Shown: in pieces, positions 2 to 22,507 of the stretch
Layout: every line of letters begins with the position of its first letter
Numbering within the stretch: the first letter of the stretch is position 1
Assembly (NCBI GenBank): GCA_018816705.1
Contig: JAHIVG010000004.1
Coordinates: 1-63,756, forward strand
Length of the DNA stretch: 63,756 nt
Direction: 5' to 3'
Source: Nanobdellota archaeon
GTDB taxonomy: Archaea; Nanobdellota; Nanobdellia; Woesearchaeales; JAHIVG01
The notes under the pieces: generated by a model
Told to the model about the DNA's origin: nothing
The model's input: the letters and a program-made list of their open reading frames with translations, nothing else
Databases searched by the model: none
Made by a program: the position numbers and the translations under genes

Positions 2-2422
2 ATGCATTTCTGGTCCGAGTTCAGGCGTATAGACCGATATCTGCTCGATGCGAAGTCACGCGGTTACGAGGAGGAGATACGCTCCATGTTCTCAGCCGCA
101 ACCAAGATTACTTTTGACGGTTCGAGCCAATGCATGATGCTGAGGAGCCTGAATTATATTAGCGAGTATGACAGGTTTGGGCACCGCGAAGTCTACTCGA
201 AAGCCAACAGGATCATCGAATGCATCGTATCACGGAACCTGTTCTTCGCCTACGGCCTGCATGACGAGGCATGGGTCTTCAAGAAATATGCTGAAAAGGG
301 ATTGGGTGACCGCTTCATCGAGGTCCTGGACCTGGCTGCCAGGATGCATGAGGACGATGAGCCCTTGACAGCTAAGAATGTCGATTGGTGGAGCGCCTAT
401 CATGGCATAATGTTCTTCCAGAAGTTCCCAGAGATGTATCAGCACATCGGCGATAGGGCCATTCCGTTATACAAGGACATCGTCAGGCGTTTCCCAGGCC
501 GTAATGATGCAGCCGATATAATAGCTGACATCAACCAAGTCTTGGAGCAGACTGAAGAGCTCACGCATAGTTGGCTCGGCTTCCTTGAGAAACACCTCCC
601 TTCAATCAAAGGGAAGAACCAAATGTATCGTGCTTTTAACTTCATCAGCGAAAGCAAAAAAGTCTTCGTGGAAGGGGCTGACCAGGCTGATTTCATGAGG
701 TATGGTGGGCTCATGCACAATCTCGGGCTGAGTGAATATCACTTCGCCCTCGAAGACCTGCTCAACTCAGACATCTCAGACAGGAAGAAAGTCAGCATAA
801 TGAAGGATTATAGGCGTATGAAATTACTGAAGGAGCTGCCTGACCCTACTCCTGACGACACCTGGTATCGGGAGACTGCAGAGCTGATGGACATAAGCTA
901 TCCAGACTTCAACCACCTGATAAAGAAGATGAGGTGGCTTGCTGGCGACAGGATGCGTCAACGTCTCGTTGACCAGCAACCTCATCTTGAGGGACTTGAC
1001 ATCTCGAAATATGAGCTAAAGCTCGGCTATTTCCATGAGCATGGATGGGACTATTTCAAGGCCATGGACGTCTTCCCAGTGCTTGATAAGAACGGATTGT
1101 TGTCAGACGAAAGGCTGACTGCATTGACCGCAGTAGTGAACTCTGACAGGCCGCTTGAGGACAAGGTGGAATTCCTGTCGAGGCTTGACAAGCAATCCGC
1201 CAAGTTCCTGCTGTTCCAGTCTCCTGAAGACCTCGATTTTGAGAGTTGGTATGCTGAGGCGCAGCGCAGGGTCCTTGGAAGCCTTGGTGTGAAGCTTGAT
1301 TATCCTATTGATTATGCCCTAAACGTTTTGGGCTGCGTGAAGGACGAGAAGGCAAGAGATCTCCTCAGGCAGATGGTGGCCCTTGAGGCAGAAGGACAGC
1401 ACAACAAGGCACTGTTCCCTGTGGGCAAGGTCTATGATGATGTAGAAGTTGTTCCGATCAGCGCTCCGGTCAGCTATCCTGAGGCCTTGAAGCATCTTGT
1501 GACCGGATTGTTAGGTCATCGGAATTCGAAATACATGAGACCTAACGAGGTGTTTGATGGAGATGACTTGTTCAAGGCGTATGAGTTGGTCAGCAACTGC
1601 CACATAAGGCCTGGACTGTTCTACAGGCACATCGAAAAAGACTTCAAGACCTTGAAGGGCAGGAGCCCGGAAGACGCGAAGGAGGCTGCGGCTGATAACA
1701 TCCTTGATGCCATGACCACATTCTATATGGGCAGGGACGGTAACGTGAATGGCAGGTATGAGCTCAGGCATATGATGAAGTTCGTGGCAGGCCTTAAGGA
1801 GGGCCTGAGCTTCAACGGCCTCACCACCAAGATGCAGGACTGGAACCTGTGGGACCTGGGAGATGGGATGAGGCTGCACTGCTGCGCCTTGCTCTCCAAG
1901 GACAAGGAGGCTGAGGAGATCGCATCCTTGTACTATCATGCCGACCCTTACATCGGGATGCTGCACCAGAACCCGCGGCTCGGCAAGGTAATGTCCAGGG
2001 CTGTCAGCGCAGGGATATTGGTCAATTGTTATAACAGGCACGGCGACCATGTCCTAGGGGTGGATTCGCCAGAGGCCGGTCCGCTGATAGACAGGATTGA
2101 TGATGGCCTGTGGCAGCCAAGCCTGGCGAAAGGCATTGCCGGCTCTGCAGTGGACACTGATGCAAGATACATCTTCTTCAATACTAATGGCATCCGTGGG
2201 AAATCGCAGAGGTTCCTGGATTTCGTGAAAGAGATGATGGCCTTCTCTGCCCCGACCGAAGTGTACCTCGAGAAGATGAAGGGTGATGGAAGGCTCGACA
2301 TCCCGAAGCAGGATAGGTATCTTGAGTTATGGTCAGGAGATGACCGGAAGGTCCAGGCAGGCAAGGGCCGAGGCCTCTACGTTCCGACAGAATTGTTCTG
2401 CGAGCTTGTGAATCAGCTTTAG
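2..2422 (+). CDS. Large hypothetical cytoplasmic protein (806 aa in window; may be 5'-truncated at the window edge)
   Basis: Continuous 2.4 kb ORF from the first codon of the window. Opposite-strand ORFs are short shadows. No TM helix, signal peptide or P-loop seen, and no family recognised. Confidence 0.6.
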   Translation: MHFWSEFRRIDRYLLDAKSRGYEEEIRSMFSAATKITFDGSSQCMMLRSLNYISEYDRFGHREVYSKANRIIECIVSRNLFFAYGLHDEAWVFKKYAEKGLGDRFIEVLDLAARMHEDDEPLTAKNVDWWSAYHGIMFFQKFPEMYQHIGDRAIPLYKDIVRRFPGRNDAADIIADINQVLEQTEELTHSWLGFLEKHLPSIKGKNQMYRAFNFISESKKVFVEGADQADFMRYGGLMHNLGLSEYHFALEDLLNSDISDRKKVSIMKDYRRMKLLKELPDPTPDDTWYRETAELMDISYPDFNHLIKKMRWLAGDRMRQRLVDQQPHLEGLDISKYELKLGYFHEHGWDYFKAMDVFPVLDKNGLLSDERLTALTAVVNSDRPLEDKVEFLSRLDKQSAKFLLFQSPEDLDFESWYAEAQRRVLGSLGVKLDYPIDYALNVLGCVKDEKARDLLRQMVALEAEGQHNKALFPVGKVYDDVEVVPISAPVSYPEALKHLVTGLLGHRNSKYMRPNEVFDGDDLFKAYELVSNCHIRPGLFYRHIEKDFKTLKGRSPEDAKEAAADNILDAMTTFYMGRDGNVNGRYELRHMMKFVAGLKEGLSFNGLTTKMQDWNLWDLGDGMRLHCCALLSKDKEAEEIASLYYHADPYIGMLHQNPRLGKVMSRAVSAGILVNCYNRHGDHVLGVDSPEAGPLIDRIDDGLWQPSLAKGIAGSAVDTDARYIFFNTNGIRGKSQRFLDFVKEMMAFSAPTEVYLEKMKGDGRLDIPKQDRYLELWSGDDRKVQAGKGRGLYVPTELFCELVNQL

Positions 2423-2461
2423 ACTGTTCCACCTTGCCTATATTTAAATACCCCCTACGCA

Positions 2462-2474
2462 ACATTTATAAATG
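2462..2474 (+). promoter_or_regulatory. TATA-like box upstream of the coiled-coil gene (a second one at 2439-2450)
   Basis: ACATTTATAAATG and TATATTTAAATA lie in the 173-nt gap after gene 1. They are more than 120 nt from ATG 2596, implying a leader, unlike most first genes here. Confidence 0.3.
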
Positions 2475-2595
2475 AAAGCCCACTTCTACGAATAAAATAC
2501 TTACTGTGGAGTAGATATATAGTAAGCGGATATTGTGAGGATATTTGCACAAGACAGAAAAATGAAAACATACTATTCAACGCGGGGTGGGGATA

Positions 2596-3795
2596 ATGGA
2601 TGAACAAGATGATTCGGAGAATGACAGTACTTTTCCAGTCCAAGGATTAGATTTTGAGGGTGGTAGCGGCATCGAAAACCTTGTCACTGAAGTGCAAAAG
2701 GCGCTTGACATGATCTCTGATGACAGGGATGGTGATGTCGCCAAGTACGACCGGCTCAGAGGAGAGATGAATTCAGCATTTGAGCAGATTATAGGCACAT
2801 TGGGCTCAGACCTACAGAACCTCAACCATATCCAAGACGCCACGCCGGGCGATGCGATCGTCACAGTCACTGAGCTGCATAAGAAAAGGAAGAGGAATCC
2901 AAGGTATGGGTCATTAATTGTTGGAACCACAAAGAATTTCTACCGTATAAGCAGGGGAAGGACGAGAATCCCCTTTTTTACTAAACTGCCAGTGGAAGTT
3001 CAGGTCGAGAAGAGCTTCGCGACATATGTTGACGAGCTTATCCAGGGTTATAGGCAGGCCAAGACCAACCTGGAGACTCACCAACGGTTCGCCGAGGCTG
3101 AAATAAGCGGTGCTGACAAGAAGATAAGGACCCTTTTCGACCTCGAAGAGAGGACCGTAAGGGGCCTTGAAGGGTTGAAGGCAAAGCTGGAAGGCGAGAA
3201 CGGATTATATGTGAGGCTGGCCAAGAAAAAGGGAGAGATAGAAGATTACGTAAAGGAGAATGAAGGAAAGGAAGAAGAGCCGAGCTATATGAGAAGACTG
3301 CTCACGCTTGAGCAGCAGACGAGGATGCTGCAGCTCGAGGTCAACAAGCTTGAAGGAGAGTTGAGATCAGGCTCGGTGGCCAGGGAGCAGGCGAGGAATT
3401 TCCGCGCGGGATATGCCACCATGCTGGAAGGGCTCAATTTCATGATCGGCCTGTCGGCCGAGGCACATAAGAAGATGGAGATAACATACGGCAACCTTGA
3501 GGCAACGTCAGGCATAAACCTTGCTGCTGCCGGGATGGCACAGGCCCTGAACGACGCCTATTCGGTCCAGAGCAAGATAAGGAGGCAGATGACAGGTTTC
3601 ATGCTCGGGACAGGCGTGTACGCCGGCAAGGCTGTGGAAGGCATGGAAATCTTCGACAAGCCTGTGCTCGACCCCAGCGGCATAGAATGCAATAAGAAGC
3701 TTGTCACATTAGCCCAAGAGGCCTCTAGGAAGCGCTTGCCCGGCGGGCAATATGCCAAGCTTAAACCAGGCCAGGAAGGCCAGCAGGGTCAATGA
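2596..3795 (+). CDS. Hypothetical coiled-coil protein (399 aa)
   Basis: The ORF track starts at GTG 2587. ATG 2596 is preceded by GGGGTGGGG (SD-like). The central part has long heptad-like charged stretches (LEGLKAKLEGENG..., LTLEQQTRMLQLEVNKLEGELR). The tail is Q/G-rich. No enzymatic motif. Confidence 0.7.
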   Translation: MDEQDDSENDSTFPVQGLDFEGGSGIENLVTEVQKALDMISDDRDGDVAKYDRLRGEMNSAFEQIIGTLGSDLQNLNHIQDATPGDAIVTVTELHKKRKRNPRYGSLIVGTTKNFYRISRGRTRIPFFTKLPVEVQVEKSFATYVDELIQGYRQAKTNLETHQRFAEAEISGADKKIRTLFDLEERTVRGLEGLKAKLEGENGLYVRLAKKKGEIEDYVKENEGKEEEPSYMRRLLTLEQQTRMLQLEVNKLEGELRSGSVAREQARNFRAGYATMLEGLNFMIGLSAEAHKKMEITYGNLEATSGINLAAAGMAQALNDAYSVQSKIRRQMTGFMLGTGVYAGKAVEGMEIFDKPVLDPSGIECNKKLVTLAQEASRKRLPGGQYAKLKPGQEGQQGQ

Positions 3796-3801
3796 GCGAA
3801 G

Positions 3802-4905
3802 ATGGACAGTGAAGACCCGCAAGCCAGGCTCGTCATCAGGACAGGCAAGAAGAAACGGTTTGACAGGACTGAGACTGCATCATACATCGCAAAGCTGACC
3901 GAACTTGTCCAGGGATTGGAGGAATTGGAGCCGCTTCAGGAATTCGAAGACTCAAAGGTCAGCAGTGTATTCCCTTTCTTGACCTACACCGAAGAGGGTG
4001 GAGTGCTTGAGACATTGTGTGTCGATCTTCGCTCAGGTTTCCCAGATTCATATGAGATTACAAATATAATGAGATCCTATGGCAGGCCGCTGTGGCCCTT
4101 CATGATTGACGACGAGAGGATCGAAAAGAAGGAGAAGGAACTTGCAGCCGAGGCCGCTGAAAGGCTATTGAAGGGTGAGGAGCCCGTCCAGGAGCAGAGG
4201 CTGTACCGGCTGATTGAGTTCAACAGGAAGGTCATGGCTTGCCTGAAAGATGGCACCCTGCCTGATCTTCATGGCCTGCATGAGACCTGGGAAGATGACT
4301 CAGTCGTCCTGCGAAGGGTTGAGTATAACCGCATGGAAAGCTCTCCGGTCTACTGGAGAATCACTATGAGCGATGCTGTTAAGAGAGGCAACGGTCTTTC
4401 AAGGCTCAATAGGTTATGGGGAGGCTCCAATAATGATAAGAAAAAGCCGTATACAATGGTCGATAGTGGTGACGGCAAGAATCCGAAGAGGGACAGCAGG
4501 CTCGACCATCTAATCAGCAATGCCTCTTTCCACCTTGATCCAGGAGTGCTCTATTGCGAGATCGATGAAGAATTCCCTGAAACGGTGCAAGAGGTCATCA
4601 GGATATCCTTCGGCCCTTTCTACCATCGGACGATAGGAAATTACCATCTCTTCAGGGAGGGCAGCATCGACGGTATCAAGCCGCTGGAACAGCTTGAAGA
4701 AGAGTTCGGAGATGATCTCAGCTTCGTGGCCTTAAGGGCTTATCAAGCGACATCAGGAGGCTTAGATAAGAATGTGACATTAAAGAGCTCCAATCAAGGG
4801 CTTGACGCTTACCTCAGGCTCGTGACCTTCCCACAGATGCATATCGTGTTAGCACCCGGATACCATACCCCTCCGCAGCTACCTGCAGGCGATTTTAATG
4901 GATGA
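3802..4905 (+). CDS. Hypothetical protein (367 aa)
   Basis: ORF lies 6 nt after the previous stop and overlaps the next gene by 8 nt, so it looks operonic. Acidic, with no TM helix or signal peptide. No family recognised. Confidence 0.65.
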   Translation: MDSEDPQARLVIRTGKKKRFDRTETASYIAKLTELVQGLEELEPLQEFEDSKVSSVFPFLTYTEEGGVLETLCVDLRSGFPDSYEITNIMRSYGRPLWPFMIDDERIEKKEKELAAEAAERLLKGEEPVQEQRLYRLIEFNRKVMACLKDGTLPDLHGLHETWEDDSVVLRRVEYNRMESSPVYWRITMSDAVKRGNGLSRLNRLWGGSNNDKKKPYTMVDSGDGKNPKRDSRLDHLISNASFHLDPGVLYCEIDEEFPETVQEVIRISFGPFYHRTIGNYHLFREGSIDGIKPLEQLEEEFGDDLSFVALRAYQATSGGLDKNVTLKSSNQGLDAYLRLVTFPQMHIVLAPGYHTPPQLPAGDFNG

Positions 4906-6889
4906 TACAAAGGACAATCTCCAGATATCAGAAAATGAAGGCGACATCCTGCTCGAGTCCAGGATACGCGCCACAGGGATAGACTGGAAGCTGCACTTCG
5001 ATGAGTTCACCCAGGAGCACAGGGCCCTGCTGCAAAAGCTCCTTGCCAACACGACTTTCGAGTATGAACTCCAGCCCATAGCGAAGCACGATCACCGATA
5101 CCTGATAGAGCTCCGCGGTCAGGGCATGCTGGATGATGCCAAGCAGATGCTTGCCCTGGCAGCCGAGATCCAGAATGACGATACAAGACTGTATGGCGCG
5201 CATGATGAGAGCGCTGCAAAAGTAGCTGAGATAATCCAGGCCTTGGGCTTGGCGTCCCTTTCTGAACTCGAACCGATCTTATCGCTCAATATATACAAAT
5301 CAGCCTTCTGCCTCCACCACGAGGGCCGGAGCACCTTCCTCCTCCACAAGAATGATGGGTCACCCTATATCGTGACAACGGATGAGGGCCACGATGCCCC
5401 TGGTGTGCCCATCGCGCCTTTAGTGCCGAGGGTACCTATTGAACCTGGTATTGTGCCGATCTCTGAATCCACAAGTATCATCAACAATCTCATGCCCTAT
5501 TTCGAGACAGACAAGGACGGCGTCAAGGATGCCCTGTACCGCATGGCAATTTACGGCATCACTGCCAGGATGGAGAATGTTCCGGTCAAGGTGACGGCGA
5601 GGTGGGATGGCCTCTCAAGGCTGCAGCATGGCATGCACCTGGCAGGCGTCCACTCAGCCATATTCCCATATCTGAGTGTCTCGAGCCAGGAAGACGGGGA
5701 GCTGGAAGACACGCTGAAGCAGCTCTACGCACAGCTCCAGGAAAGGCACATCGACCCTGAGGCTGAATTAGGGGAGTTCACCTACTCCAACGAGTGGCCC
5801 CTAAGCCTCGAGAGCAAGGCTTACGCTGACTTCCAGGCTATCGCCTCACGGCAAGGCAAGGAAGACCTGCTGAAGGCCAACATCGCCGTCGTAAGGATGA
5901 CCGCTGCCAATGCATTGGATGAGCTCGGACTGCCGATCGACGCTGACAAGCTCGACTACAGCCGGGGCAGGGAAGGCCTGATGGCTCAGCTCAGGGATAT
6001 CACGAGAGAGATAAAGAATAACGAGAAGAGGTATGGTTTCCTGCCGTTCGATCACATCATCGCATCTGACAGGCTCAAGACCGACCTGAGGACGAATGAT
6101 GACGAGATATGGATAGGCAGCAAAGGAGAGATCGAAAAGAGATGCAAGACCGTCTTCTCTGTCCGGCTCGAGGACGGATCCGTCCACAATTATGACATTG
6201 TCGATGACCAGAAAGAGGTCACAATGGCTGAGAGGGCGACCGGTTTCCCTGACTGGTACAAGCCCATGGCCTGCAACATCGGCGACAAGATAGTGACGAC
6301 CGACAAGGCTCGTGAGTGGACCTACGAGGGTGAGGTCAAGAATATCAAAGGGGGCATGGACGGGGAAGTAATCAATATATGCGGTGATACGAGGTTCTAC
6401 TATGTACAGCCCAGGAATCGCGATGCGCATACCAATGAGAAGCGTGACAGCCAAGCGAACATGTACTATGCCGATCGGCTGAAAGATGAGGAAGGGAACA
6501 TTATGTACGGCCAGGAGAAGCTTCTCAAGCATCTGGAGAGGAGGATCAGCGAGAGCCTGCCAGAGCATTTCTCAAGCCAGCTGAAGGTGAAGCCTGATGA
6601 CCTCCAATTCGATGAGGACAAGGAAGGCAATTTCATCCTGTTCCATCAGACCCAGATAGGGGGGAGACCAGCTCATCTTTACTTGGCCTACACACCAGAT
6701 TCGAACTTCTTGATAACCTGCGTAGGGGGGGAGCCCGACAGGCAGATGGCCTTTGACATCGTCAGGTCAGCGAAGCCGAATGCTGAAAAGTTCGCAGGAT
6801 TGGCCGCTTCCACCAGAGCGGATCTGCTCGAGCTTTCCTGCCTCGGCGAGACGCAGGAGCATTATGTGATAGGGTGCAAAAGTGATTAG
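4898..6889 (+). CDS. Hypothetical protein, tandem paralog 1 of 3 (663 aa)
   Basis: Shares three modules with 6976-8925. These are an N-terminal ~140-aa module, a middle module (RYGFLPFD.. / ..IWIGSKGEI..) and a C-terminal module (..NAEKFAGL..DLLEL..). Shares the N- and C-terminal modules with 8922-10256. Confidence 0.75.
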   Translation: MDDTKDNLQISENEGDILLESRIRATGIDWKLHFDEFTQEHRALLQKLLANTTFEYELQPIAKHDHRYLIELRGQGMLDDAKQMLALAAEIQNDDTRLYGAHDESAAKVAEIIQALGLASLSELEPILSLNIYKSAFCLHHEGRSTFLLHKNDGSPYIVTTDEGHDAPGVPIAPLVPRVPIEPGIVPISESTSIINNLMPYFETDKDGVKDALYRMAIYGITARMENVPVKVTARWDGLSRLQHGMHLAGVHSAIFPYLSVSSQEDGELEDTLKQLYAQLQERHIDPEAELGEFTYSNEWPLSLESKAYADFQAIASRQGKEDLLKANIAVVRMTAANALDELGLPIDADKLDYSRGREGLMAQLRDITREIKNNEKRYGFLPFDHIIASDRLKTDLRTNDDEIWIGSKGEIEKRCKTVFSVRLEDGSVHNYDIVDDQKEVTMAERATGFPDWYKPMACNIGDKIVTTDKAREWTYEGEVKNIKGGMDGEVINICGDTRFYYVQPRNRDAHTNEKRDSQANMYYADRLKDEEGNIMYGQEKLLKHLERRISESLPEHFSSQLKVKPDDLQFDEDKEGNFILFHQTQIGGRPAHLYLAYTPDSNFLITCVGGEPDRQMAFDIVRSAKPNAEKFAGLAASTRADLLELSCLGETQEHYVIGCKSD

Positions 6890-6975
6890 ATGCCAGACAT
6901 ATGCATATCCAAGACAGGCGAAGGGTTCTCGGTAGTTATTACCATTTGTATGCAGTACGGTAGGAGGCTTCTAGC

Positions 6976-8925
6976 ATGGACCTGACGCTCCGCATGATGA
7001 AAAATGAAGACGGCATCCGCATGGAGTCAGAGCTGGAATCACCTCACCTTACACAGGACATTGAGGAATTCATCGGACAACAGCGTGCCACGCTTGAGTC
7101 ACTCCTCCAGGCCGGGCCCTTGACCTACAAGCTAAGTTCGATGAGATATGAGAACGGGCTGTATTCCTTCATGTTCGAAGGAGAGGGACCGCTGGCTGAC
7201 GCTGTCAGGCTTCTCGACCAGGCTGAGGCCATCAGGTCTGACAAGGCCTTGCTCAACCAGGCTTATGATGGTTTGTCAGAAGAGGTCAGGAAGCTCCTGG
7301 AGAGGTTCAATGTCGATTCGTTGGAGCAGATCGCGCCTGTTGCACGTTTTAATATAATGATCCCATATTCTGCCATCAAGATACGGGACCATAAGTATTA
7401 CCTCGTCCGGGCCCCTGCTTCAGACGTGCCACGGATAATCTCAGACGGGCCTGTGCTCAGCGTCGAGGAATCGAGGCAGATCCCGCTTGATGATGTTACG
7501 GAAGTAGTTAACTTGTTTTCAGCCGCCTATTTTGATTATGATGATGATAGGCTGTCTGGGGAATTACGAAGGATGGCTGAAGGATACGTCAAGAGTGCAA
7601 AAGCCGATGGCTCTGCAGTTACGGATGCAGTCTGGGATTGCTACCGCAAGAAAAAGAACACCTATCAATTGCGCACTGTGGAGCCTGAGCTGCTGGAGCT
7701 CATGTCAGCGAGGAGCGTGAGCAATTCCCTGCTCCAAGGGACTTTCGTCCAGCTCCTCGACGAGCTCAAGGACAGGGTCCGGCCTTCTGATGAAAAGACC
7801 GGCACCATCCGTTATTCCGACAGCCTCGACGGCAACCAACTGGAGCTGATGGCCAATGACACGCCTTTCTACATGTTCGACCCCTTATTCAGGAAGGACC
7901 CCCAGGAGGCCTTTGAGGACGCGGTGTCCGGCGTGCTTAAGTCCGATTACCTGCGCATCCATCCGAAGGCCGTCGATCAAAGCAAGGGCCTGGAAGGGGT
8001 GATGAAGGGGATAGATAATCTCCTGATGAAGCTAGAGGCCGATCCGAGCAGGTTCGGATTCCTCCCCCATGACAAGGTCGTCATCCACCAGGCCGAGAGA
8101 TGCCCTGACCATCCCGGGAACATCTGGGACACCAGCTCAGGCACGGTCATCCGAAGGAGGGAAGATTATTATCCTGTCGAGTTCGAGGACGGGACGTGCC
8201 TTAGAGTAAGGCGTGAGGATATCAAGTATTACCCAGCGCTAGATACTCTGGCAAATATCAGTCCCATGTGGCATGACCGTCCAGAGCTGGCCCCTGGCGT
8301 CACTGTGCTGATAAAGCCTGAGAAGCAGGGCAAAGGTTACCATCCGGATGTCGTTCCAATGCTCGCGGAGAGGGACGGCCAGTTCGCGAAGATAGTCGGC
8401 TATTGCTATGACCTCAGGATGGACAGGATTGCCTTCCAGGACGGCAGGAGCTTCAAATCCACAACCAATCATTACGGGCTGAGCCAGGCGGTGATGAGAA
8501 AGGAATCCTCTGACCTTGAGGCTGTGGCGGGGGAAATCCGGAAAAACATCATGGACAGATTGATTTATGGATATATGTGCGCCTTATCATGCCGAGAGAT
8601 GTTCTTATTCCCCAAGGCGGGAGATGACGGCGGGATGGTGCTCAAGGCCATCAACGCAAGGAAGGGCACCAAGGCAATCTCCATCCTGGTGCAGACCCCT
8701 GGCCAGGACAGGTATGTCTGGAGCGCCCTCAACAAGAGGTATAATGACTTCAATTCCAGGTTCGATTATGAGAAAGAAGTGAGGGAGATCCTCGGTAACG
8801 ACTCAGATCCAGAGAAGAAGTTCATAGACCTCCTCCTGACGAAGAGCAGCCTCATGGAGTTCATCCACCTGCCGAAGGAGGGCAAGCCCACGGTCCTGCA
8901 ATATACCGGAAGGCATCCATTATGA
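6976..8925 (+). CDS. Hypothetical protein, tandem paralog 2 of 3 (649 aa)
   Basis: AGGAGG lies 7 nt upstream of the ATG. Alignable by eye to paralog 1: SRFGFLPHD vs RYGFLPFD, IWDTSSGTV vs IWIGSKGEI, DPEKKFIDLL..LMEF vs NAEKFAGLA..LLEL. Confidence 0.75.
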   Translation: MDLTLRMMKNEDGIRMESELESPHLTQDIEEFIGQQRATLESLLQAGPLTYKLSSMRYENGLYSFMFEGEGPLADAVRLLDQAEAIRSDKALLNQAYDGLSEEVRKLLERFNVDSLEQIAPVARFNIMIPYSAIKIRDHKYYLVRAPASDVPRIISDGPVLSVEESRQIPLDDVTEVVNLFSAAYFDYDDDRLSGELRRMAEGYVKSAKADGSAVTDAVWDCYRKKKNTYQLRTVEPELLELMSARSVSNSLLQGTFVQLLDELKDRVRPSDEKTGTIRYSDSLDGNQLELMANDTPFYMFDPLFRKDPQEAFEDAVSGVLKSDYLRIHPKAVDQSKGLEGVMKGIDNLLMKLEADPSRFGFLPHDKVVIHQAERCPDHPGNIWDTSSGTVIRRREDYYPVEFEDGTCLRVRREDIKYYPALDTLANISPMWHDRPELAPGVTVLIKPEKQGKGYHPDVVPMLAERDGQFAKIVGYCYDLRMDRIAFQDGRSFKSTTNHYGLSQAVMRKESSDLEAVAGEIRKNIMDRLIYGYMCALSCREMFLFPKAGDDGGMVLKAINARKGTKAISILVQTPGQDRYVWSALNKRYNDFNSRFDYEKEVREILGNDSDPEKKFIDLLLTKSSLMEFIHLPKEGKPTVLQYTGRHPL

Positions 8926-10256
8926 GGCATTCGATCGGTGAGCTCGTGCTGAAGCTCGAGCAGGGAAGGATCGTTTCGGAATCTGACATCTCGGTCACAG
9001 GCCTGGATTTCGAGGGCATAATCAAGGATTTCATCTGTCGGAACAGGCCTGCCCTCCTGAAGGTGCTTGAAAGACAGCCTCTGCATTACAATCTCAGGAA
9101 TGTATCCTGCCAGGAAGATGCCTATGTCCTGGAGTTCGAGGAGAGGGATGATTGGTCAGATGTCCAAGAATGCCTCAAGGCAGCCGAGCGGATACGCCAG
9201 GAACCGAAGGCCATGAACGAGGGATGGGAAAGGCTCTCGGCAAGAGTGAAGGAAGTGGCAGCGCATTACGGCGTCGATTCGGTTGCAGAGCTGGCAGAGA
9301 TTCCCAGCTTCAGGATCAAGCGTACAGCGATGGCGCTGGACAAGGGGTTTGGCACATGGTATTATCTCTACAAAGGAGAACCCGGGAAATATTTCATTGT
9401 GGTGCCGAATTTTGGAGAGCCTTTGCGAGGAGACCCAATTTTCGGTAACTTGGAAGATACTTCAGCAATTGCTCAAAACCTCAGGCCTCACATCGTTCTC
9501 CAGCGCGTGGACATCTCCCGTGAGTTCCATAAGCTCATTGATGAGAAGGCCAAGGAACTTGAGGACACAGGCCTGAGCCTGCTCGATCCTTACGCCCTCT
9601 CGCTCTACAGGTTCCAACACAGGGTTGAAGGCCCATTGCACCCGGACATCTTCAAGCATGCTATCATCCGTCCGACAGAGGACAAGGACCTGGAGTATAC
9701 CTTGAAGAAGCTGTTCAAAGCGATAAGTCGGCTGGAGCCTAAGGAAGAGTATGGAGCCCTGCTGGTGCCAGAGAATTATCCAAAGGATTCCCCATCTCAT
9801 AAACACCCGTTCTATTCGTTGGCTGAACACACTCATCAGGTTCTCAGTGAGGCATATGATAAAACTACTCAGTATAATCGTTACAGGGATGATCAAGGGA
9901 ACTTAGCTTTAAGGGATGTTTCGCATGGGAAGAAAGAGATCATGGACCAGACTTTGGTTTCCACACCGAAAGCGAATTATATCTTCACTTGCTCCATGCC
10001 AAATAATTTCAGGCTCGATAGCCTGACCGAGATCTTCACCTCCGATGCGTCTGATGAAAAAAAGTTCATGCAGACATTCCTGATTGTTCACACAGACCTC
10101 ATCGAGCTTGGTTCTTACAGACAGGGCCAGGAGCCAAGATTCATATTATACTCTAGCAGGGATATTTACGAGAAGGCGATGCGTTATCGGGCTGAGAAAA
10201 AAGAGTTGGATTCAGCCCGAAAAGCATATAAATACCGTTCGGCTTCTCAGCCATGA
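8922..10256 (+). CDS. Hypothetical protein, tandem paralog 3 of 3 (444 aa; lacks the middle module)
   Basis: ATGA overlap with paralog 2. The N-terminal module (..YVLEFEERDDW.DVQECLKAAERIRQ..VDSVAELAEIPSFRIK..) and C-terminal module (SDEKKFMQTFL..DLIELG) match paralogs 1 and 2. Confidence 0.75.
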   Translation: MRHSIGELVLKLEQGRIVSESDISVTGLDFEGIIKDFICRNRPALLKVLERQPLHYNLRNVSCQEDAYVLEFEERDDWSDVQECLKAAERIRQEPKAMNEGWERLSARVKEVAAHYGVDSVAELAEIPSFRIKRTAMALDKGFGTWYYLYKGEPGKYFIVVPNFGEPLRGDPIFGNLEDTSAIAQNLRPHIVLQRVDISREFHKLIDEKAKELEDTGLSLLDPYALSLYRFQHRVEGPLHPDIFKHAIIRPTEDKDLEYTLKKLFKAISRLEPKEEYGALLVPENYPKDSPSHKHPFYSLAEHTHQVLSEAYDKTTQYNRYRDDQGNLALRDVSHGKKEIMDQTLVSTPKANYIFTCSMPNNFRLDSLTEIFTSDASDEKKFMQTFLIVHTDLIELGSYRQGQEPRFILYSSRDIYEKAMRYRAEKKELDSARKAYKYRSASQP

Positions 10257-10552
10257 TGAGGGTGAGGTACAAGCTCTGGCTGGAGCACAAGGGCGAGCCC
10301 CTGCTCGGAGAGGGCCGTTATAGCATACTGAAGCTGCTCGAGGAGACGAATTCTGTCCAGCGCACAGCAGCTGTCCTGAGCATCGCTCCCAAGACTATAT
10401 ACAACTACATCAGCCGCATGGAATCCAGGCTTGGCAAGGACATCCTGATAGCCAAGAAGGGCGGTAGGCTCGGAGGAGCGAAGGTCTTCCTCACGCCGGC
10501 GGGCAAGAGGCTTATTGCCGAATATGAGGAAGCGAAGAAGAGGTTCAGATGA
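10253..10552 (+). CDS. ModE N-terminal-domain-like winged-helix transcriptional regulator (99 aa)
   Basis: The stretch ..LGEGRYSILKLLEETNSVQRTAAVLSIAPKTIYNYISRMESRLG..L..KKGG..GGAKVFLTPAGKRL.. resembles the ModE/LysR-type HTH N-domain. Sits directly upstream of the Mo/W cofactor genes, with ATGA overlaps on both sides. Confidence 0.7.
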   Translation: MMRVRYKLWLEHKGEPLLGEGRYSILKLLEETNSVQRTAAVLSIAPKTIYNYISRMESRLGKDILIAKKGGRLGGAKVFLTPAGKRLIAEYEEAKKRFR

Positions 10553-11796
10553 TAGATTACCTGCGCGTATCGATAACCGGAAGGTGCAATCTCAGCTGCG
10601 ACTACTGCCACAGGGAAGGCAATTCCGACACTTCCGACTTAAGTCTTGATAAATTCAAGGAGATAATCAAGGCCGCGCATGATACCGGCTTCCGCAAGCT
10701 GAAGCTCACCGGAGGGGAGCCGTTGCTCCATCCCCATCTGATCGACATGATAAGCTCAGCCAAGAGCACAGGCTTCAAGGACATCTCGCTCGTCACAAAC
10801 GGACTGATGTTACACGAGAAGGCAGAAGCCCTCAGAGCTGTCGGCTTAGACAGGCTGAACATCGGCTGTGATTCTCTCACCGGTCCGAGCGGCAAGACCG
10901 TCCAGAAGATTTCCGCAGGATTGAGGTCAGCGAAAGAAGCAGGCTTTGATCCGGTCAAGCTGAACATGGTCGTGCTGAAAGGCATCAACGACCATAAGAT
11001 CCAGGACATGATATCCTTCGCAGCCGAGAACGATGTCATGCTGCAGCTGATAGAGCTCATCCCGTTGGGCTGCAGCCCTGATTTCTTCAAGAGGCATTTC
11101 TTCTCCCTCGACGATGTCGAGAAGGATCTGTCAAAAGGTGCTGACAAGACTGTTGAGAGAGGGATGCAGGGAAGGAAGCAATATCATTACCAAGGTGCAA
11201 TTGTCGAGGTAGTTGGCCCGCATAAGGATGATTTCTGCGCTAACTGCACAAAGCTCAGGGTGGACAACCATGGCTTCATCAAGCCATGCCTGAAGGATGA
11301 CACGCTCATCGACTTCAACGGCCAGGACTCATTGAAGCTCGCGATAAAGATGAAGGAGGTAAAAAAAATGATAGACATATCATCGAAGGAGATTACGCCA
11401 AGGACTGCCTCGGCGTCTGGAAGGATAGTGCTGAAGAAAGCCACGATGGATACCATAAAGCAGAAGAAGATAAAGAAGGGAGACCCGTTCGAGGCCTCTA
11501 AGACAGCGGCCATGTACGCTGTGAAGAACACCCATAACCTGATACCTTACTGCCACCCGCTGCCGGTCGAGTCGGTCAAGATGGATTTCGAGATGCTGGA
11601 CGACGGGATAAGGATGGTCATCACTGTCAAGGCCCGCTACCGCACCGGCGTGGAGATGGAAGCATTGAACGGGGTGCTCATAGGCCTCTCGACCATCTGG
11701 GACATGGTGAAGTATCTCGAGAAAGACAGCAAGGGACAATATCCTGACACCAGGATCACTGATGTCCGCATCGATGAGAAGACCAAGGGGGCATGA
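10549..11796 (+). CDS. moaA: MoaA (GTP 3',8-cyclase, radical SAM) fused in-frame to MoaC (cyclic pyranopterin monophosphate synthase), 415 aa
   Basis: N-terminal radical-SAM CNLSCDYC (CX3CX2C). Second cluster motif CANCTKLRVDNHGFIKPC (CX2CX13C). The C-terminal 142 aa carry MoaC-like NLIPYCHPLP and GVEMEALNGV. The junction lies in an A8 run with an internal GGAGGT-N7-ATG (see findings). Confidence 0.85.
   Translation: MIDYLRVSITGRCNLSCDYCHREGNSDTSDLSLDKFKEIIKAAHDTGFRKLKLTGGEPLLHPHLIDMISSAKSTGFKDISLVTNGLMLHEKAEALRAVGLDRLNIGCDSLTGPSGKTVQKISAGLRSAKEAGFDPVKLNMVVLKGINDHKIQDMISFAAENDVMLQLIELIPLGCSPDFFKRHFFSLDDVEKDLSKGADKTVERGMQGRKQYHYQGAIVEVVGPHKDDFCANCTKLRVDNHGFIKPCLKDDTLIDFNGQDSLKLAIKMKEVKKMIDISSKEITPRTASASGRIVLKKATMDTIKQKKIKKGDPFEASKTAAMYAVKNTHNLIPYCHPLPVESVKMDFEMLDDGIRMVITVKARYRTGVEMEALNGVLIGLSTIWDMVKYLEKDSKGQYPDTRITDVRIDEKTKGA
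11355..11360 (+). promoter_or_regulatory. Internal Shine-Dalgarno (GGAGGT) 7 nt upstream of the in-frame ATG that begins the MoaC domain
   Basis: The sequence atgaaGGAGGTaaaaaaaATGatagac lies inside the moaA-moaC ORF. Confidence 0.5.
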
Positions 11797-11797
11797 C

Positions 11798-12301
11798 ATG
11801 GACATACCGTCTCTGCACAAGAGAGATGCGCCGAAGACGGCGTCAGCAGCCATAATCACGGTCTCCAGCCGTTTTTCAGGGGAGAAGGGTGATGCCGGTG
11901 GGGATCTGATAGAGAGGATGCTCAAAGATGCTCATATCCAGGTTGTCTCAAGGGACCGGGTTCCTGACGAGCTAGAGCTGATAACCGAGAGAATAAGAAA
12001 CTCGGCAGAGAAGGCCGATCTGATCATAACTACCGGCGGCACAGGACTTTCCAAAGATGATTTTACTGTTGAAGCGGCCCATCCATTGTTCGACAAGGAG
12101 CTGAAGGCATTTCATGTCCTGTTCACCCAGCTGAGCCATGGGCAGATAGGCAGCTCAGCTGTGATGTCCAACGCGACAGCAGGGATCATCGGCAATTCTG
12201 TCTGCTTCTGCCTTCCAGGCAGCCCGGATGCGTGCAGGCTTGCGCTGGAGAAGATAATCCTCCCTGAGATATCCCACATCAAGCAACAGGTGAGAAAATG
12301 A
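11798..12301 (+). CDS. moaB: MoaB/Mog-family molybdopterin adenylyltransferase (167 aa)
   Basis: AAIITVSSRFSGEKGD.GG.., ..DLIITTGGTGLSKDDFT.., ..PGSPDAC.. are typical MoaB/MogA motifs. ATG 11798 follows AAGGGGG. The ORF-track start at 11762 would overlap moaAC. Confidence 0.8.
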   Translation: MDIPSLHKRDAPKTASAAIITVSSRFSGEKGDAGGDLIERMLKDAHIQVVSRDRVPDELELITERIRNSAEKADLIITTGGTGLSKDDFTVEAAHPLFDKELKAFHVLFTQLSHGQIGSSAVMSNATAGIIGNSVCFCLPGSPDACRLALEKIILPEISHIKQQVRK

Positions 12302-13128
12302 AAAGGACAACATTATTTGTTACAGTTTTTTCCTTGTTGGTCGTGCTCGGCGGAATCTATGCCGTAATGACGCCCGAGGAGAAAATCCTCCGCCTGGCCA
12401 CGACGACAAGCACATATGATTCTGGATTGCTGGATTACATAATCCCTGTGTTCGAAGAAAAGTACAACATTGAAGTTCAGATAATTTCTGTTGGAACAGG
12501 CCAGGCGATCACGAATGGCGAGAGAGGCGACGTTGATGTTATAATGGTTCATTCACCTGAGGCTGAACTCAAGTTCATTGACAAAAGATATGGCATTGAC
12601 AGGTACTGCGTGATGTATAACGACTTCGTGATTGTCGGACCTGCAGAGGATCCAGCAGGCATAAAAGGCATGAACATCAAAGATGCGATGGGCGTCATCT
12701 CTGACCAGGAGGCCATATTTGTGTCGAGGGGTGATGACTCAGGCACACACAAGAAAGAGCTGAAGCTCTGGAAAGCATCAGGTATGATGCCGGCTGGAAG
12801 CTGGTACCTGGAGTCAGGCGACGGCATGGGGATGACGTTGCAGCTTGCGTCTGAAAAAGGCGCTTATACGCTTACTGACAGGGCGACCTTCACCTTCAGG
12901 AAAAAGACTCTTGACCTTGAGATACTTGTCGATGGCGACATCGGATTGCTGAACCCTTATGGCATAATCGCTGTCAACCCGGATATGCATCCTTCCGTAG
13001 ACTATGAATCAGCGACAGATTTCATCGACTGGTTCAAGGAGCCTTTGACACAGCAGCTTATTGCTCAATACCGAGTTGATGGTGAGCAGCTTTTCACGCC
13101 CCTGAACGGCGAATGCATCGGAGGCTAG
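12298..13128 (+). CDS. tupA: Tungstate/molybdate ABC transporter substrate-binding protein, TupA-like (276 aa)
   Basis: N-terminal hydrophobic anchor. Carries the TTTS motif (LATTTSTYDSGLL) and SRGDDSGTH, which I associate with TupA-type tungstate binding proteins. ATGA overlap with moaB. Confidence 0.75.
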   Translation: MKRTTLFVTVFSLLVVLGGIYAVMTPEEKILRLATTTSTYDSGLLDYIIPVFEEKYNIEVQIISVGTGQAITNGERGDVDVIMVHSPEAELKFIDKRYGIDRYCVMYNDFVIVGPAEDPAGIKGMNIKDAMGVISDQEAIFVSRGDDSGTHKKELKLWKASGMMPAGSWYLESGDGMGMTLQLASEKGAYTLTDRATFTFRKKTLDLEILVDGDIGLLNPYGIIAVNPDMHPSVDYESATDFIDWFKEPLTQQLIAQYRVDGEQLFTPLNGECIGG

Positions 13129-13131
13129 GTA

Positions 13132-13830
13132 ATGGGAGTCATTATCGAGGGATTTGTCGAAGCATCGCGCCTGATACTGACCCTTGACCCTGAAATAGTC
13201 GCAATAACCTGGTTATCGCTCAAGGTCTCTGTATCGGCTGTCGTACTAGGCTTCATTCTTGCAATGCCTATTGCATTGGCCCTTTCTTTCTACAATTTTC
13301 CCGGCAAGCAGTTTTTGGTGAACATTGTCAACACTTTGATGGGGCTCCCGCCAGTGGTTGTAGGACTTTTCGTCTACCTGATCCTCTCTGCGTCAGGGCC
13401 ACTTGGTTTCATGCAGCTGCTCTACTCGCCGGCTGCCATGATCATAGCCCAGCTCATAATCGTCATCCCGATAATTGCTGCGATAAGCTATAACTCAATT
13501 TCCTCGTTGGATTCCAGGCTGAAGGAGACAGCAGTATCCCTTGGAGCAAATAATCTCCAGGCGATGTGGCTTCTCATAATGGAAGCGCGGAAAGGGATCG
13601 TGACATCCATAATTGCTGGCTTCGGAGCCGCCATATCAGAAGTCGGTGCGATATTCATAGTCGGCGGAAACATAAGGTTTCACACAAGGGCATTGACCAC
13701 TGCAATAATGCTCGAGACAAGGAGGGGGCAGTTTGAGCTGGCGATTGCGTTAGGGATAATCCTTTTGGCAATGGCTTTCGCTGTCAACATCATACTCACA
13801 AGATACCAAGCGAGGGGCATCCCGAGATGA
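13132..13830 (+). CDS. tupB: ABC transporter permease, TupB-like (232 aa)
   Basis: Multi-TM protein with an EAA-like loop (KETAVSLGANNLQ..). GGAGGC precedes the ATG. Lies between the binding protein and the ATPase. Confidence 0.8.
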   Translation: MGVIIEGFVEASRLILTLDPEIVAITWLSLKVSVSAVVLGFILAMPIALALSFYNFPGKQFLVNIVNTLMGLPPVVVGLFVYLILSASGPLGFMQLLYSPAAMIIAQLIIVIPIIAAISYNSISSLDSRLKETAVSLGANNLQAMWLLIMEARKGIVTSIIAGFGAAISEVGAIFIVGGNIRFHTRALTTAIMLETRRGQFELAIALGIILLAMAFAVNIILTRYQARGIPR

Positions 13831-14531
13831 TACTTGAGTTAAAAGGGATTACGAAGACGTATGGGCAGCAGAAAGTGCTTGACTCTGTCTGTTTTTCAGT
13901 AGGAAAGCCAGAATTCTTCACGATCCTTGGCCCTAGCGGGGCTGGGAAGACCACACTCCTGAAGATAATCACCGGGTTCATCAGTTCAAGCGGTACTGTT
14001 CATTTCAAGGGCAGGAGATTAAACAATGGCTTCCCTGAAGGCATGGTCATAGGATTCCAGAACCCTATAATGTTCAACACTTCCGTCTTCAACAACATTA
14101 CTTACGGCCTGAAGATAAGGAAAAAGACAAGCAATTACATTGAGGGGAAGCTCAGGGATGTTCTCCATATCGTGCGGATAAACGATCTTAAGAGAAATGC
14201 CCTTAGCCTTTCTGGCGGAGAGGTACAAAGGGTGGCGCTGGCAAGGCTCTTGATGTTGGATCCCGAGCTCATACTGCTGGACGAGCCTACGGCGCACCTG
14301 GACCCGAGCAACGTTGGCAACATAGAGCATATCCTCCATAAAGTCAATAAGGAGATGGGCAAGACCATAATACTCGCCACCCACAACATCAACCAGGCAA
14401 AAAGGTTGTCTGACAGGCTTATGCTCCTAATCGATGGCAGGACCGTGGAGATTTCTGACAATGAGACCTTTTTCAATAAGCCCAAAAGCGCCGAGACGTC
14501 GAGATTTCTGAAAGGTGATATCGTATGGTAA
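13827..14531 (+). CDS. tupC: ABC transporter ATP-binding protein, TupC-like (234 aa)
   Basis: Walker A GPSGAGKTT, signature LSGGEVQRVALAR, Walker B LILLDEPTAHLD. ATGA overlap with the permease gene. Confidence 0.85.
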   Translation: MILELKGITKTYGQQKVLDSVCFSVGKPEFFTILGPSGAGKTTLLKIITGFISSSGTVHFKGRRLNNGFPEGMVIGFQNPIMFNTSVFNNITYGLKIRKKTSNYIEGKLRDVLHIVRINDLKRNALSLSGGEVQRVALARLLMLDPELILLDEPTAHLDPSNVGNIEHILHKVNKEMGKTIILATHNINQAKRLSDRLMLLIDGRTVEISDNETFFNKPKSAETSRFLKGDIVW

Positions 14532-15733: not shown

Positions 15734-16176
15734 CAGGGAAAATAATCTCAATAAACATCAGTGAGAAGAAAGGCACTCCCAAGGACCCTGTCGACGAGGC
15801 AGAGCTGAGGGTTGATCATGGCATAGTGGGCGATGCGCACGCCGGCCCGGGCATAAGGCAGGTATCTCTCATGGCGTCCGAGGACATAGAGGAGTTCAAG
15901 AGAACGGCAGCATCCAAGGTCTGCATCAAGCATGGCATCTTCGGGGAAAACTTGACCACTGAAGGTATAGACCTCGAAAAACTGCAGATCGGCGACAGGC
16001 TAAAGGTCGGCGAGGCCATCATCGAGATCACCAAGAAAGGCAAGGAATGCCACATCCCTTGCTCCATCGGCAGGACAGTTGGAAAATGCATCATGCCCGA
16101 GAAGGGTGTGTTCGGGAAGGTGTTGAAGGGTGGGATGATAAGTAAAGGCGATCAGATCAGGAAAATCGTCTCTTAA
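15730..16176 (+). CDS. MOSC-domain protein (148 aa)
   Basis: GKIISINISEKKGTPKDPV..A.L..DHGIVGDAHAG.GIRQVSL.. resembles the MOSC (Mo cofactor sulfurase C-terminal) beta-barrel family. The TTG start overlaps the moeA stop, so the start is uncertain. Confidence 0.65.
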   Translation: MTGKIISINISEKKGTPKDPVDEAELRVDHGIVGDAHAGPGIRQVSLMASEDIEEFKRTAASKVCIKHGIFGENLTTEGIDLEKLQIGDRLKVGEAIIEITKKGKECHIPCSIGRTVGKCIMPEKGVFGKVLKGGMISKGDQIRKIVS

Positions 16177-22434: not shown

Positions 22435-22456
22435 GCAAGAAGTTTTCCCTGTGTTG

Positions 22457-22464: not shown

Positions 22465-22507
22465 TTTTGTGAGAAGATTTAAGTACGAAAACAGTTCTAG
22501 CCATGGC

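Follow-up and report, generated by a model that had tools for sequence, protein, structure and literature searches.

Which kind of system is encoded by the six genes that open contig JAHIVG010000004.1 of a Nanobdellota archaeon? Positions 1 to 63,756 of the contig make up the stretch that is called the window. Its first 10 kb (positions 2–10256) carry six genes (g1 to g6), all of them on the plus strand, and a first-pass annotation of the DNA regarded them as ORFans that lack any recognizable catalytic signature and as a candidate for an undescribed system. Here, we found that the block genes are not true orphans but a rare, conserved cluster, homologs of which occur in six or more further lineages known from metagenomes, and that the window edge cuts g1 short. 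A relative of g1 with 81% identity carries a GNAT domain at its N-terminus. We read the block as a candidate scaffolded acetyltransferase complex with lineage-specific partners, which would be analogous but not homologous to eukaryotic NatA and NatB, and we assign a probability of roughly 0.35 to this reading.

Conservation of the block in other lineages

An exhaustive HMMER search, in which a profile of the paralogs g4, g5 and g6 was run against 1.84e9 representative proteins, returned six non-self relatives. These were P0005 (793 residues, E = 6e-46), P0006 (580 residues) and P0007–P0010 (632–677 residues). When g4 was compared with these proteins, E-values of 1e-32 (P0005) and of 1e-9 to 1e-13 (P0007–P0010) were obtained. 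Four of the six block genes have homologs elsewhere that are detectable at the tblastn level. Gene correspondences between the clusters were established by local all-against-all phmmer comparisons, and two variants of the cluster could be distinguished.

Variant A is located on a 76-kb contig of a metagenome-assembled genome (L081, 39% GC). On the minus strand of L081, the gene of a 237-residue GNAT and that of a 1063-residue g1 homolog overlap by 22 nt. Divergent from the g1 homolog, L081 carries in this order the genes for a 409-residue g2 homolog (5885–7114), a 406-residue g3 homolog (7148–8368, 31% identity), P0005 (g4/g5) and P0006 (g6). The corresponding E-values were 1e-58 for g1, 2e-16 for the GNAT, 2e-12 for g2, 5e-44 for g3, 1e-32 for g4 and 4e-11 for g6. 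Thus, all gene families of the block occur in L081 in the same order although protein identity is only 20–30%, and this conservation of gene order argues for selection on the block as a unit. Downstream of the block and on the same strand, L081 carries genes for Elp3 (TIGR01211, 5e-191), for a YkuD-domain protein and for a tRNA/rRNA m5C methyltransferase (12602–16299).

Variant B is represented by L087 (1774–12522) and by fragments in L084, L086 and JGI 3300042731. Compared with the window, L087 encodes a g1 homolog of 714 residues (1e-71), a g4-like protein (2e-13) and a GNAT (2e-9). The variant-B GNATs consist of 186–200 residues and their genes directly follow the g4-like gene in L084, L087 and JGI 3300042731; in L087, the stop codon of the g4-like gene and the start codon of the GNAT gene share a base. 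In L086, a partial gene downstream of P0009 also matches the cluster GNATs. In variant B, counterparts of g2 and g3 are missing, and the cluster encodes instead a 754-residue protein, a 264-residue radical SAM protein, a 649-residue double-AAA ATPase and a 328-residue protein with a strongly conserved HGDPHTKxMRCLGDSHY motif. Kinship of the 328-residue family with g3, or of the 754-residue family with g2 or g1, was considered and rejected, since hhalign did not find any.

Because a GNAT, a g1-like protein and a g4-like protein recur in variants A and B, we consider these three components as the conserved core of the cluster. The ORFan status assigned in the first-pass annotation is not tenable in the strict sense, and L081 indicates that the genes of the block have been retained together.

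g1 and its putative N-terminal GNAT

The g1 gene (positions 2–2422, plus strand) encodes 806 residues and is open at the window edge, so that the window holds the C-terminal part of a longer protein. What precedes this part can be judged from P0002, a protein of 562 residues that runs off its own contig. Residues 442–562 of P0002 are 81% identical to residues 1–121 of g1, and P0002 adds 441 residues upstream of the g1 start. Within this additional portion, residues 63–156 match the Pfam GNAT family (PF00583, E = 4.4e-7, 30.6 bits at a cutoff of 20.7). P0002 is also colinear with the split gene pair of L081: its residues 33–180 correspond to the 237-residue GNAT and its residues 343–472 to residues 129–256 of the 1063-residue protein. 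Because of the P0002 overlap and the L081 colinearity, full-length g1 should comprise a GNAT followed by about 1050 residues, which adds up to at least about 1247 residues in total.

Judged from its sequence, P0002 is a Rosetta-stone fusion that ties a GNAT physically to the g1 protein. For the window's own genome, we infer this fusion from the 81%-identical relative rather than seeing it directly. The location of the GNAT varies between lineages: it appears to be fused to g1 in this lineage, it is split off in L081, and in variant B its translation is coupled to that of the g4-like gene. Lack of a catalytic signature thus holds true for the proteins as cut by the window but not for the g1 relative P0002. 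The interpretation given in the first-pass annotation is supported in part: the cluster is real, conserved and unannotated, and it has an enzymatic handle beyond the window edge.

When a profile of four cluster GNATs (A12) was searched against PDB sequences, the best match was Naa20 (2.5e-14), and Naa50 (9e-11), Naa30 (8.6e-8) and Naa10 (1.1e-7) were also retrieved. The archaeal enzyme NAT/Ard1 (SSO0209) scored between 1.9e-9 and 4e-8. All of the best 22 PDB matches were N-terminal acetyltransferases (NATs), RimI reached no better than 2e-4 and there was no RNA acetyltransferase among the PDB matches listed. The alignment with Naa20 spans beta2–beta7 including the Tyr-containing beta6–beta7 loop, in which the profile (dyyd..p.dDay) is aligned to EYYsas.gePdEDAY of Naa20. 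In NATs, this loop with its conserved Tyr restricts the site to N-termini. At the sequence level, one Tyr is retained in all four cluster GNATs (P0002 reads GYHEDD). Outside P0002, PF00583 was matched by the GNATs of L081 (2.4e-9) and L087 (4.6e-8). Taken together, these data indicate that the cluster GNAT is closest to the NATs by profile, and it is probably an extra, specialized paralog and not a housekeeping NAT.

The best-conserved part of the g1 family is the C-terminal domain (positions 1799–2419, plus strand; residues ~600–806), and this domain is also the site of the invariant motifs of the family (RLxCCAxLSxDxE..ADPYI..H..P, NC, DSxExG). In three-lineage alignments, the motif RLxCCAxLSxDxExxExxSxxYxADPYI (positions 1871–1957, plus strand; residues 624–652) is invariant, and the same holds for H655, N675-C676 and D688-S689-x-E691-x-G693. 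An AlphaFold2 model of g1, which was built on four sequences, involves about 35 helices in hairpin-like pairs between residues 1 and 660, where the predicted local distance difference test score (pLDDT) is mostly below 50. For residues 670–806, an alpha/beta domain of the order beta-beta-alpha-beta-alpha-beta-beta was predicted with pLDDT values of 65–83, and its topology resembles that of GNATs. Foldseek comparison of the model with the PDB yielded a single coherent group of matches, which were GNAT folds (Naa50, Naa10, the acetyl-CoA-binding C-domain of ICL2, RimJ, SpeG). Naa50 (6yzz) was matched with a probability of 0.95 and a target TM-score (TMt) of 0.44 and Naa10 in NatA (9fpz_2) with a probability of 0.92 and a TMt of 0.89, both at E-values of 0.4–1. 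There were also low-probability matches to HEAT/solenoid proteins. We regard the GNAT-like C-terminal domain of the model as a lead rather than a result.

A scaffolded acetyltransferase complex as tentative reading

In a scaffolded acetyltransferase complex, g1 would be the organizing component. It would consist of about 1250 residues with an N-terminal NAT-type GNAT, a helical and probably solenoid-like region of about 850 residues and a C-terminal alpha/beta domain. Such a protein might function as self-scaffolded, acetyl-CoA-dependent protein acetyltransferase, in which the layout of NatA/NatE or NatB is collapsed into one polypeptide. The helical or coiled g2, the globular g3 and the paralogs g4, g5 and g6 may assemble on g1 in the cytoplasm as stoichiometric partners, adaptors or dedicated substrates. 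Formation of the complex, its catalytic competence, protein N-termini as substrate and the roles of g2 to g6 are features that we infer. Native codon usage and the housekeeping setting of the block, which are described below, were counted in favor of the acetyltransferase complex. Since g1 lacks similarity to the auxiliary-subunit families of Pfam and to solved chains, analogy and not homology to the NAT complexes is claimed. NAT auxiliary subunits bind the catalytic GNAT and anchor it to the ribosome; for a similar role of g1, which would be putative, there is genomic support from the fusion in P0002, the 22-nt overlap of the two genes in L081 and the common cluster in L087.

A number of observations weigh against this interpretation. 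The GNAT is located outside the window and the fusion rests on the relative P0002, which when searched alone does not match any PDB chain at E ≤ 0.05. In canonical GNATs, beta4 is followed by the acetyl-CoA pyrophosphate-binding motif Q/R-x-x-G-x-G/A. This motif is degenerate and lacks Gly in P0002 (QGSVVF) and in P0021 of L087 (RNRRIF); in L081 (QGKGVS) and L084 (QRRGVF) it is nearer to the canonical form. In its sequence, g1 resembles neither PDB chains nor Pfam families, among them those of the NAT auxiliary subunits, and a profile search of the PDB (A10) did not return anything relevant at E ≤ 5. The model of g1 is of low quality (mean pLDDT 50, predicted TM-score 0.31), none of its Foldseek E-values (0.4–4) is significant and a NAT auxiliary subunit is absent from its top 50 PDB matches. 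When the C-terminal domain of g1 was compared with the cluster GNATs by hhalign, no relation was detected. Moreover, the gene content of the cluster varies, and variant B with its radical SAM and double-AAA proteins but without g2 and g3 would be atypical for a housekeeping NAT. Finally, none of the evidence bears directly on g2 to g6.

The partner genes g2 to g6

g2 (positions 2587–3795, plus strand) encodes an acidic, helical protein of 402 residues when counted from a GTG codon and of 399 residues when counted from the ATG at 2596. A crude heptad scan indicated heptad-like segments at residues 142–184 and 304–334, and there were weak matches to heptad regions of SMC-like proteins and mitofusin. 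The best match in PADLOC was PbeC (2.5e-4, 17.8 bits) over the coiled-coil region, and the matches to LmuB and PbeC were confined to coiled-coil segments (15–18 bits). Kinship with SMC/Rad50-like proteins, in which ABC ATPase heads flank a long coiled coil, was not found, since g2 has no Walker A motif. There was no family match for g2. The description of g2 as long coiled-coil protein is partially supported by these data, which cover the two heptad-like segments and the weak matches.

g3 (positions 3802–4905, plus strand) encodes a globular protein of 367 residues with the conserved motifs PFLxYTExGG, CVDxxSGFP, LWGGxN and GPFYH, and neither Pfam nor the PDB provided a match. Its stop/start overlap with the following gene is conserved and amounts to 8 nt in the window and to 4 nt in L081.

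The remaining three genes are paralogs beyond doubt, as had been recognized before: BLASTP yielded E-values of 1e-27 for g4/g5, 5e-19 for g4/g6 and 4e-12 for g5/g6, which is far beyond chance. g4 (positions 4898–6889, plus strand; 663 residues) is a long-form modular protein with an N-terminal region of about 300 residues, a beta-rich middle module and a C-terminal module. g5 (positions 6976–8925, plus strand; 649 residues) is a second long-form paralog and its ATG is preceded by GGAGG at a distance of 8 nt. g6 (positions 8922–10256, plus strand; 444 residues) is a short form, which has the N-terminal region and the C-terminal module but no middle module. In the first-pass annotation, the middle module had been confined to the two long paralogs and a common C-terminal module had been proposed, and both assignments are in line with our alignments: of the three proteins, g6 alone lacks the middle module (YGFLP, IWxGSxGE, FPxWY), and the C-terminal module of about 100 residues is shared by all three proteins (alignment A2). 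In contrast, the N-terminal module common to g4 and g6 extends over about 300 and not over 140 residues.

The middle module of g4 (positions 6023–6487, plus strand; residues ~376–530) carries YGFLP (379–383), IWIGS (404–408), FPDWY (450–454) and IGDKIV, is predicted to form long beta-hairpins and is common to g4, g5, P0005 and P0007–P0010 (alignment A3). In an AlphaFold2 model of g4 (7 sequences, pLDDT 56), residues 310–600 comprise a long helix and the middle part, which is rich in beta-strands (pLDDT 58–90), and for residues 386–530, which are beta-rich with long hairpins, the pLDDT is 72–90. The C-terminal module was modeled as beta/alpha, and the N-terminal region was left unpredicted at very low confidence. 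Foldseek searches with g4 yielded no PDB match below E = 0.03 and, in BFVD, no match at E ≤ 0.001 and no query TM-score (TMq) above 0.10. The earlier assignment of the middle module to the SH3/Tudor class, which may still fit the beta-rich model, was not confirmed by Foldseek. The only profile lead was a weak match of P0008 to DUF4926 (0.007). Since both g4 and g5 match P0005 best in L081, their alignment scores suggest a duplication specific to this lineage. Among the window proteins, P0006, the short form of L081, matches g6 best (1.7e-11), so that a pair of long-form and short-form paralogs is present in the window and in L081.

These properties might also be expected if the block encoded a structural cytoplasmic assembly such as a scaffold, cage or filament, which is built from g2 and oligomerizing g4, g5 and g6 and in which g1 and the GNAT are only modifiers or regulators. 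The six proteins are soluble, acidic and lack transmembrane segments, g2 has heptad-like segments, and long and short paralogs that share N- and C-terminal modules, as seen again in L081, are what one would expect of hetero-oligomers. In addition, the start/stop overlaps suggest stoichiometric co-production. However, we did not find fold or sequence similarity to cytoskeletal, encapsulin, bacterial microcompartment, gas-vesicle or cage proteins, and the N-terminal region of g4 was modeled at very low confidence. Variant B drops g2 and g3 and keeps the GNAT, the g1-like and the g4-like protein, which indicates that the conserved core is linked to the enzyme and not to the coiled coil. We therefore consider a structural assembly improbable. 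The multi-subunit cytoplasmic assembly of the first-pass annotation is still a reasonable frame, but the more specific idea of a scaffold, cytoskeleton or cage lacks direct evidence.

The beta-rich middle module is also compatible with KOW, SH3 or Tudor classes, and a complex for modification or processing of tRNA or rRNA could be envisaged, in which the GNAT acetylates RNA or aminoacyl-tRNA and beta-barrel modules of g4 and g5 bind RNA. The Elp3 and m5C methyltransferase genes that follow the cluster on the same strand in L081 and the radical SAM enzyme of variant B fit such a function. In the window, there is no Elp3, m5C methyltransferase or other RNA-modification neighbor, and a molybdenum-cofactor operon follows instead. 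The isoelectric points of the proteins (5.0–6.1) are unusual for RNA binders, the GNAT profile matches protein NATs with no RNA acetyltransferase among the PDB matches listed, and Pfam searches did not reveal a helicase or a THUMP/PUA-type domain. This function appears highly unlikely to us.

Searches in family, viral and defense databases

Pfam, NCBIfam, PHROGs and PADLOC did not assign any of the six block proteins to a significant family, and the same was true for their homologs apart from the GNAT and the generic radical SAM and AAA proteins of variant B. For the block proteins, the best PHROGs match had an E-value of 0.015, and g1, P0011 and P0012 lacked any Pfam match at E ≤ 1. Sequence and profile searches of the PDB with g1, g3 and the g4 family did not return anything. 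tblastn searches of phage and plasmid records found no match to the block, scans of IMG/VR were empty and Foldseek comparison of g4 with BFVD was negative. In PADLOC-DB 2.0, the L081 and L087 homologs remained without match except for the generic radical SAM and AAA proteins of variant B. Thus, profile and structure searches place none of the six proteins in a known viral, defense or other family, which is in line with the previous failure to name one.

A k-mer-seeded protein search retrieved only g4 itself when g4 was the query, and only P0002 when g1 or the g1 alignment was used. This method missed the L081 and L087 homologs, which exact look-up showed to be part of its own collection, and its negatives are weak at 20–30% identity. 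For this reason, recovery of the query alone is no evidence of orphan status. Metagenome scans with patterns from the g3 alignment and with the pattern YYxADPYIG were also negative; JGI L082 was not recovered either, so that the collection may not cover it. Alignment A3 was too divergent to yield search patterns, and exact look-ups of g3 and P0002 did not return a recorded contig.

The rare and patchy distribution of the cluster, with six non-self matches in 1.84e9 representatives, raises the possibility of a conflict or defense system, in which the GNAT, together with a viperin/MoaA-like radical SAM protein and an AAA protein in variant B, would be the effector. In such a system, the large and fast-evolving proteins (g1, the g4 family) may act in sensing or scaffolding, with g2 and g3 as lineage-specific adaptors. 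Fast divergence (homologs are only 20–30% identical), paralog expansion in g4, g5 and g6, swapping of modules between variants A and B and absence of the block beside the modE-moaAC operon in 80 other loci are consistent with this possibility, and so are the PADLOC matches of the variant-B radical SAM protein to pVip (7e-10) and of the AAA protein to IetA (2e-17), which are at superfamily level. On the other hand, neither the six proteins nor their L081 homologs have a significant PADLOC match (the PbeC match of g2 at 2.5e-4 being the best), and the usual effectors, such as a nuclease, a protease, TIR or Sir2, are missing. With Naa20 and Naa50 as its best matches, the GNAT resembles NATs rather than a small toxin. 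The neighbors are housekeeping genes, codon usage is native, there is no integrase, transposase or tRNA nearby and phage and plasmid records lack matches. A defense function is thus rather unlikely, although we rank it first among the alternatives.

Organization of the block and chromosomal context

Calling of open reading frames (ORFs) confirmed the layout described before, with six co-directional genes that are separated by gaps of 164, 6 and 86 nt or overlap by 8 and 4 nt, and with an ATGA overlap between g6 and the ModE-like gene. The previous figures for g2 were mixed: 399 residues correspond to the ATG start, for which the gap to g1 is 173 nt, and the 164-nt gap corresponds to the GTG start. 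The proteins are acidic, lack a Walker A motif and do not contain a transmembrane-like stretch (no 19-residue hydrophobic window above 1.32), which agrees with the earlier description. GC content per codon position was about 0.55/0.36/0.65 in all six genes, which thus show a strong periodicity at the third position.

The spacer between g1 and g2 (positions 2423–2595, plus strand) contains two TATA-like boxes (~2439–2453 and ~2464–2475), and GGTGGGG precedes the ATG at 2596. Its sequence suggests that it is probably the promoter of g2 to g6. Because of the TATA-like boxes and of the divergent orientation of the g1 homolog in L081, g1 and g2–g6 may be regarded as two transcription units.

NatB, the catalytic subunit of which is Naa20, has Met-Asp N-termini as its substrate class. 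Of the five block proteins that are complete, four begin in this way (g2 from ATG 2596, g3 from 3802, g4 from 4898 and g5 from 6976), compared with 2 of the 34 other ORFs in the window. A hand-computed hypergeometric probability of about 9e-4 was obtained for this post hoc comparison. Since the pattern is not consistently retained among the L081 and variant-B homologs, we note it but draw no conclusion from it.

The window represents an archaeal chromosomal segment, which encodes an archaeal-type MoaA fused with MoaC, ModABC, MoeA, HisRS, PurL/PurQ, S-adenosylhomocysteine hydrolase and a methionine aminopeptidase of type II. We did not observe any tRNA, Rfam RNA, integrase or transposase in the window. 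Its GC content is flat, and codon usage of the six genes correlates with that of the rest of the window, which comprises housekeeping genes, at 0.91–0.94. Recent horizontal transfer was rejected, since both codon usage and GC content match the rest of the window.

The block might alternatively be the remnant of a degraded provirus or mobile element, or a chance juxtaposition of unrelated, fast-evolving genes. Lack of database annotation and absence of the block from the corresponding site of other archaeal genomes would be compatible with such an origin. However, there is no PHROG match below E = 0.015, IMG/VR, phage, plasmid and BFVD searches were empty and the composition is native. Moreover, conservation of the gene order in L081 at 20–30% identity implies selection on the unit, and we consider a remnant or a chance arrangement hardly credible.

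Downstream of the block, a molybdenum-cofactor/molybdate operon follows (positions 10253–15733, plus strand), which encodes a helix-turn-helix-only ModE protein of 99 residues, the MoaA-MoaC fusion (415 residues), a 179-residue ORF product, ModA, two ORFs and MoeA. The gene of the ModE-type protein (positions 10253–10552, plus strand) is the first gene of this operon and a neighbor outside the system. L011 and L029 have the same gene order in this operon; their taxonomic labels disagree (metagenome-assembled genomes of Thermoplasmatales and Woesearchaeota). In both of them, the operon (modE-moaAC...moeA) starts at modE with unrelated genes upstream and without the block. A functional link between the block and molybdenum-cofactor synthesis was rejected, since the ATGA overlap is lineage-specific and the relatives start the operon at modE; the coupling between g6 and modE is probably incidental. 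Among 185,579 species representatives, the nearest MoaA-MoaC protein is only 53% identical, which suggests that no close relative of the organism has been sampled. A genome scan anchored on MoaA-MoaC covered 80 loci, none of which carried the block, and with a best identity of 53% this absence covers distant archaea.

Several other features of the window were recorded. At 11 kb from the block, on the minus strand (positions 21550–22848), there is the gene of the type II methionine aminopeptidase, another enzyme of nascent-chain processing, which has an N-terminal extension of about 140 residues that does not match any family. On the plus strand, positions 35324–37468 encode a very hydrophobic protein of 714 residues with a grand average of hydropathy of 0.74 and a spermidine-synthase-like domain in its middle. 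Positions 37682–40383 (plus strand) carry a radical SAM gene followed by a Memo-AMMECR1 fusion (497 residues); this arrangement is of the AmmeMemoRadiSam type, and two of its three components are fused. Five co-directional, overlapping genes with little annotation (372, 1363, 1402, 906 and 318 residues) are located at positions 50391–63454 (plus strand). The four of these proteins that were checked (all except the 318-residue one) have isoelectric points of 4.4–4.6, and three of them have weak von Willebrand A matches.

Comparison with known systems

Of the defense systems in PADLOC, Iet and pVip share with variant B the double-AAA protein and the small radical SAM protein, respectively, and patchy spread and fast divergence are additional similarities. 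In contrast, the cluster in the window has neither of these genes, and the matches of variant B are generic to the superfamilies.

The bacterial protein acetyltransferase Pat/YfiQ combines a domain that resembles NDP-forming acyl-CoA synthetases with a GNAT at its C-terminus, and MshD and Eis are double-GNAT enzymes. The putative architecture of g1 resembles these enzymes in that a GNAT would be fused to a big regulatory or scaffold region, or that two GNAT folds would occur per chain. However, the Pfam-detectable domains of Pat/YfiQ are absent here, and the domain order and the helical region are different.

The archaeal Ard1 proteins (SSO0209 of Sulfolobus and Thermoplasma Ard1) belong by profile to the same GNAT subfamily as the cluster GNAT, and the host is archaeal in each case. 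In contrast to Ard1, the cluster GNAT belongs to a multi-gene cluster, in which it is fused to a giant partner or encoded next to it. Archaeal NATs have been described as monomeric without any auxiliary-subunit homolog being found, and auxiliary scaffolds are seen as eukaryotic (PMC5390088). Our literature search for NAT scaffolds in Asgard archaea did not find anything relevant. A more far-reaching possibility, which we consider doubtful, is that NAT holoenzymes composed of several subunits exist in some archaea and arose independently of the eukaryotic holoenzymes or anciently alongside them. In this case, a Naa20/Naa50-like catalytic GNAT would be tethered to a giant helical scaffold that carries a second GNAT-fold domain, and g2, g3 and the long and short members of the g4 family would be dedicated partners of new families. 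If true, this would overturn the monomer-only view of archaeal NATs and provide a prokaryotic model for the origin of NAT scaffolds.

The cluster offers a testable candidate for a scaffolded acetyltransferase outside eukaryotes, with a NAT-type GNAT fused to or located beside a protein of about 1000 residues that is predicted to be helical. A minimum of four protein families (g1, g2, g3 and the g4 family) are newly defined by the cluster, and they have clear motifs and no annotation. Even if the analogy to NATs fails, there is a well-delimited system in multiple lineages with one enzymatic handle, which is approachable experimentally.

Several differences from the eukaryotic NAT complexes were noted. 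g1 does not share similarity with the Naa15/NARP1, Naa25/Mdm20 and Naa35/Mak10 families or with PDB chains, the GNAT appears to be fused to the scaffold here and its acetyl-CoA motif deviates from the canonical form in this lineage. In NAT complexes, nothing corresponds to the four or five extra conserved partners (g2, g3 and the g4 family), and the distribution of the cluster is rare and patchy, whereas that of the eukaryotic complexes is universal. On the other hand, the proteins of the cluster, like those of the eukaryotic complexes, are predicted to be cytoplasmic and soluble, and a possible second GNAT-fold unit on the scaffold would weakly recall Naa50 on Naa15 in NatA/NatE. A further similarity to NatB (Naa20-Naa25), NatA/NatE (Naa10-Naa15-Naa50) and NatC (Naa30-Naa35-Naa38) is a NAT-type GNAT that is tied to a partner of 700–1000 residues, which is predicted to be mainly helical here.

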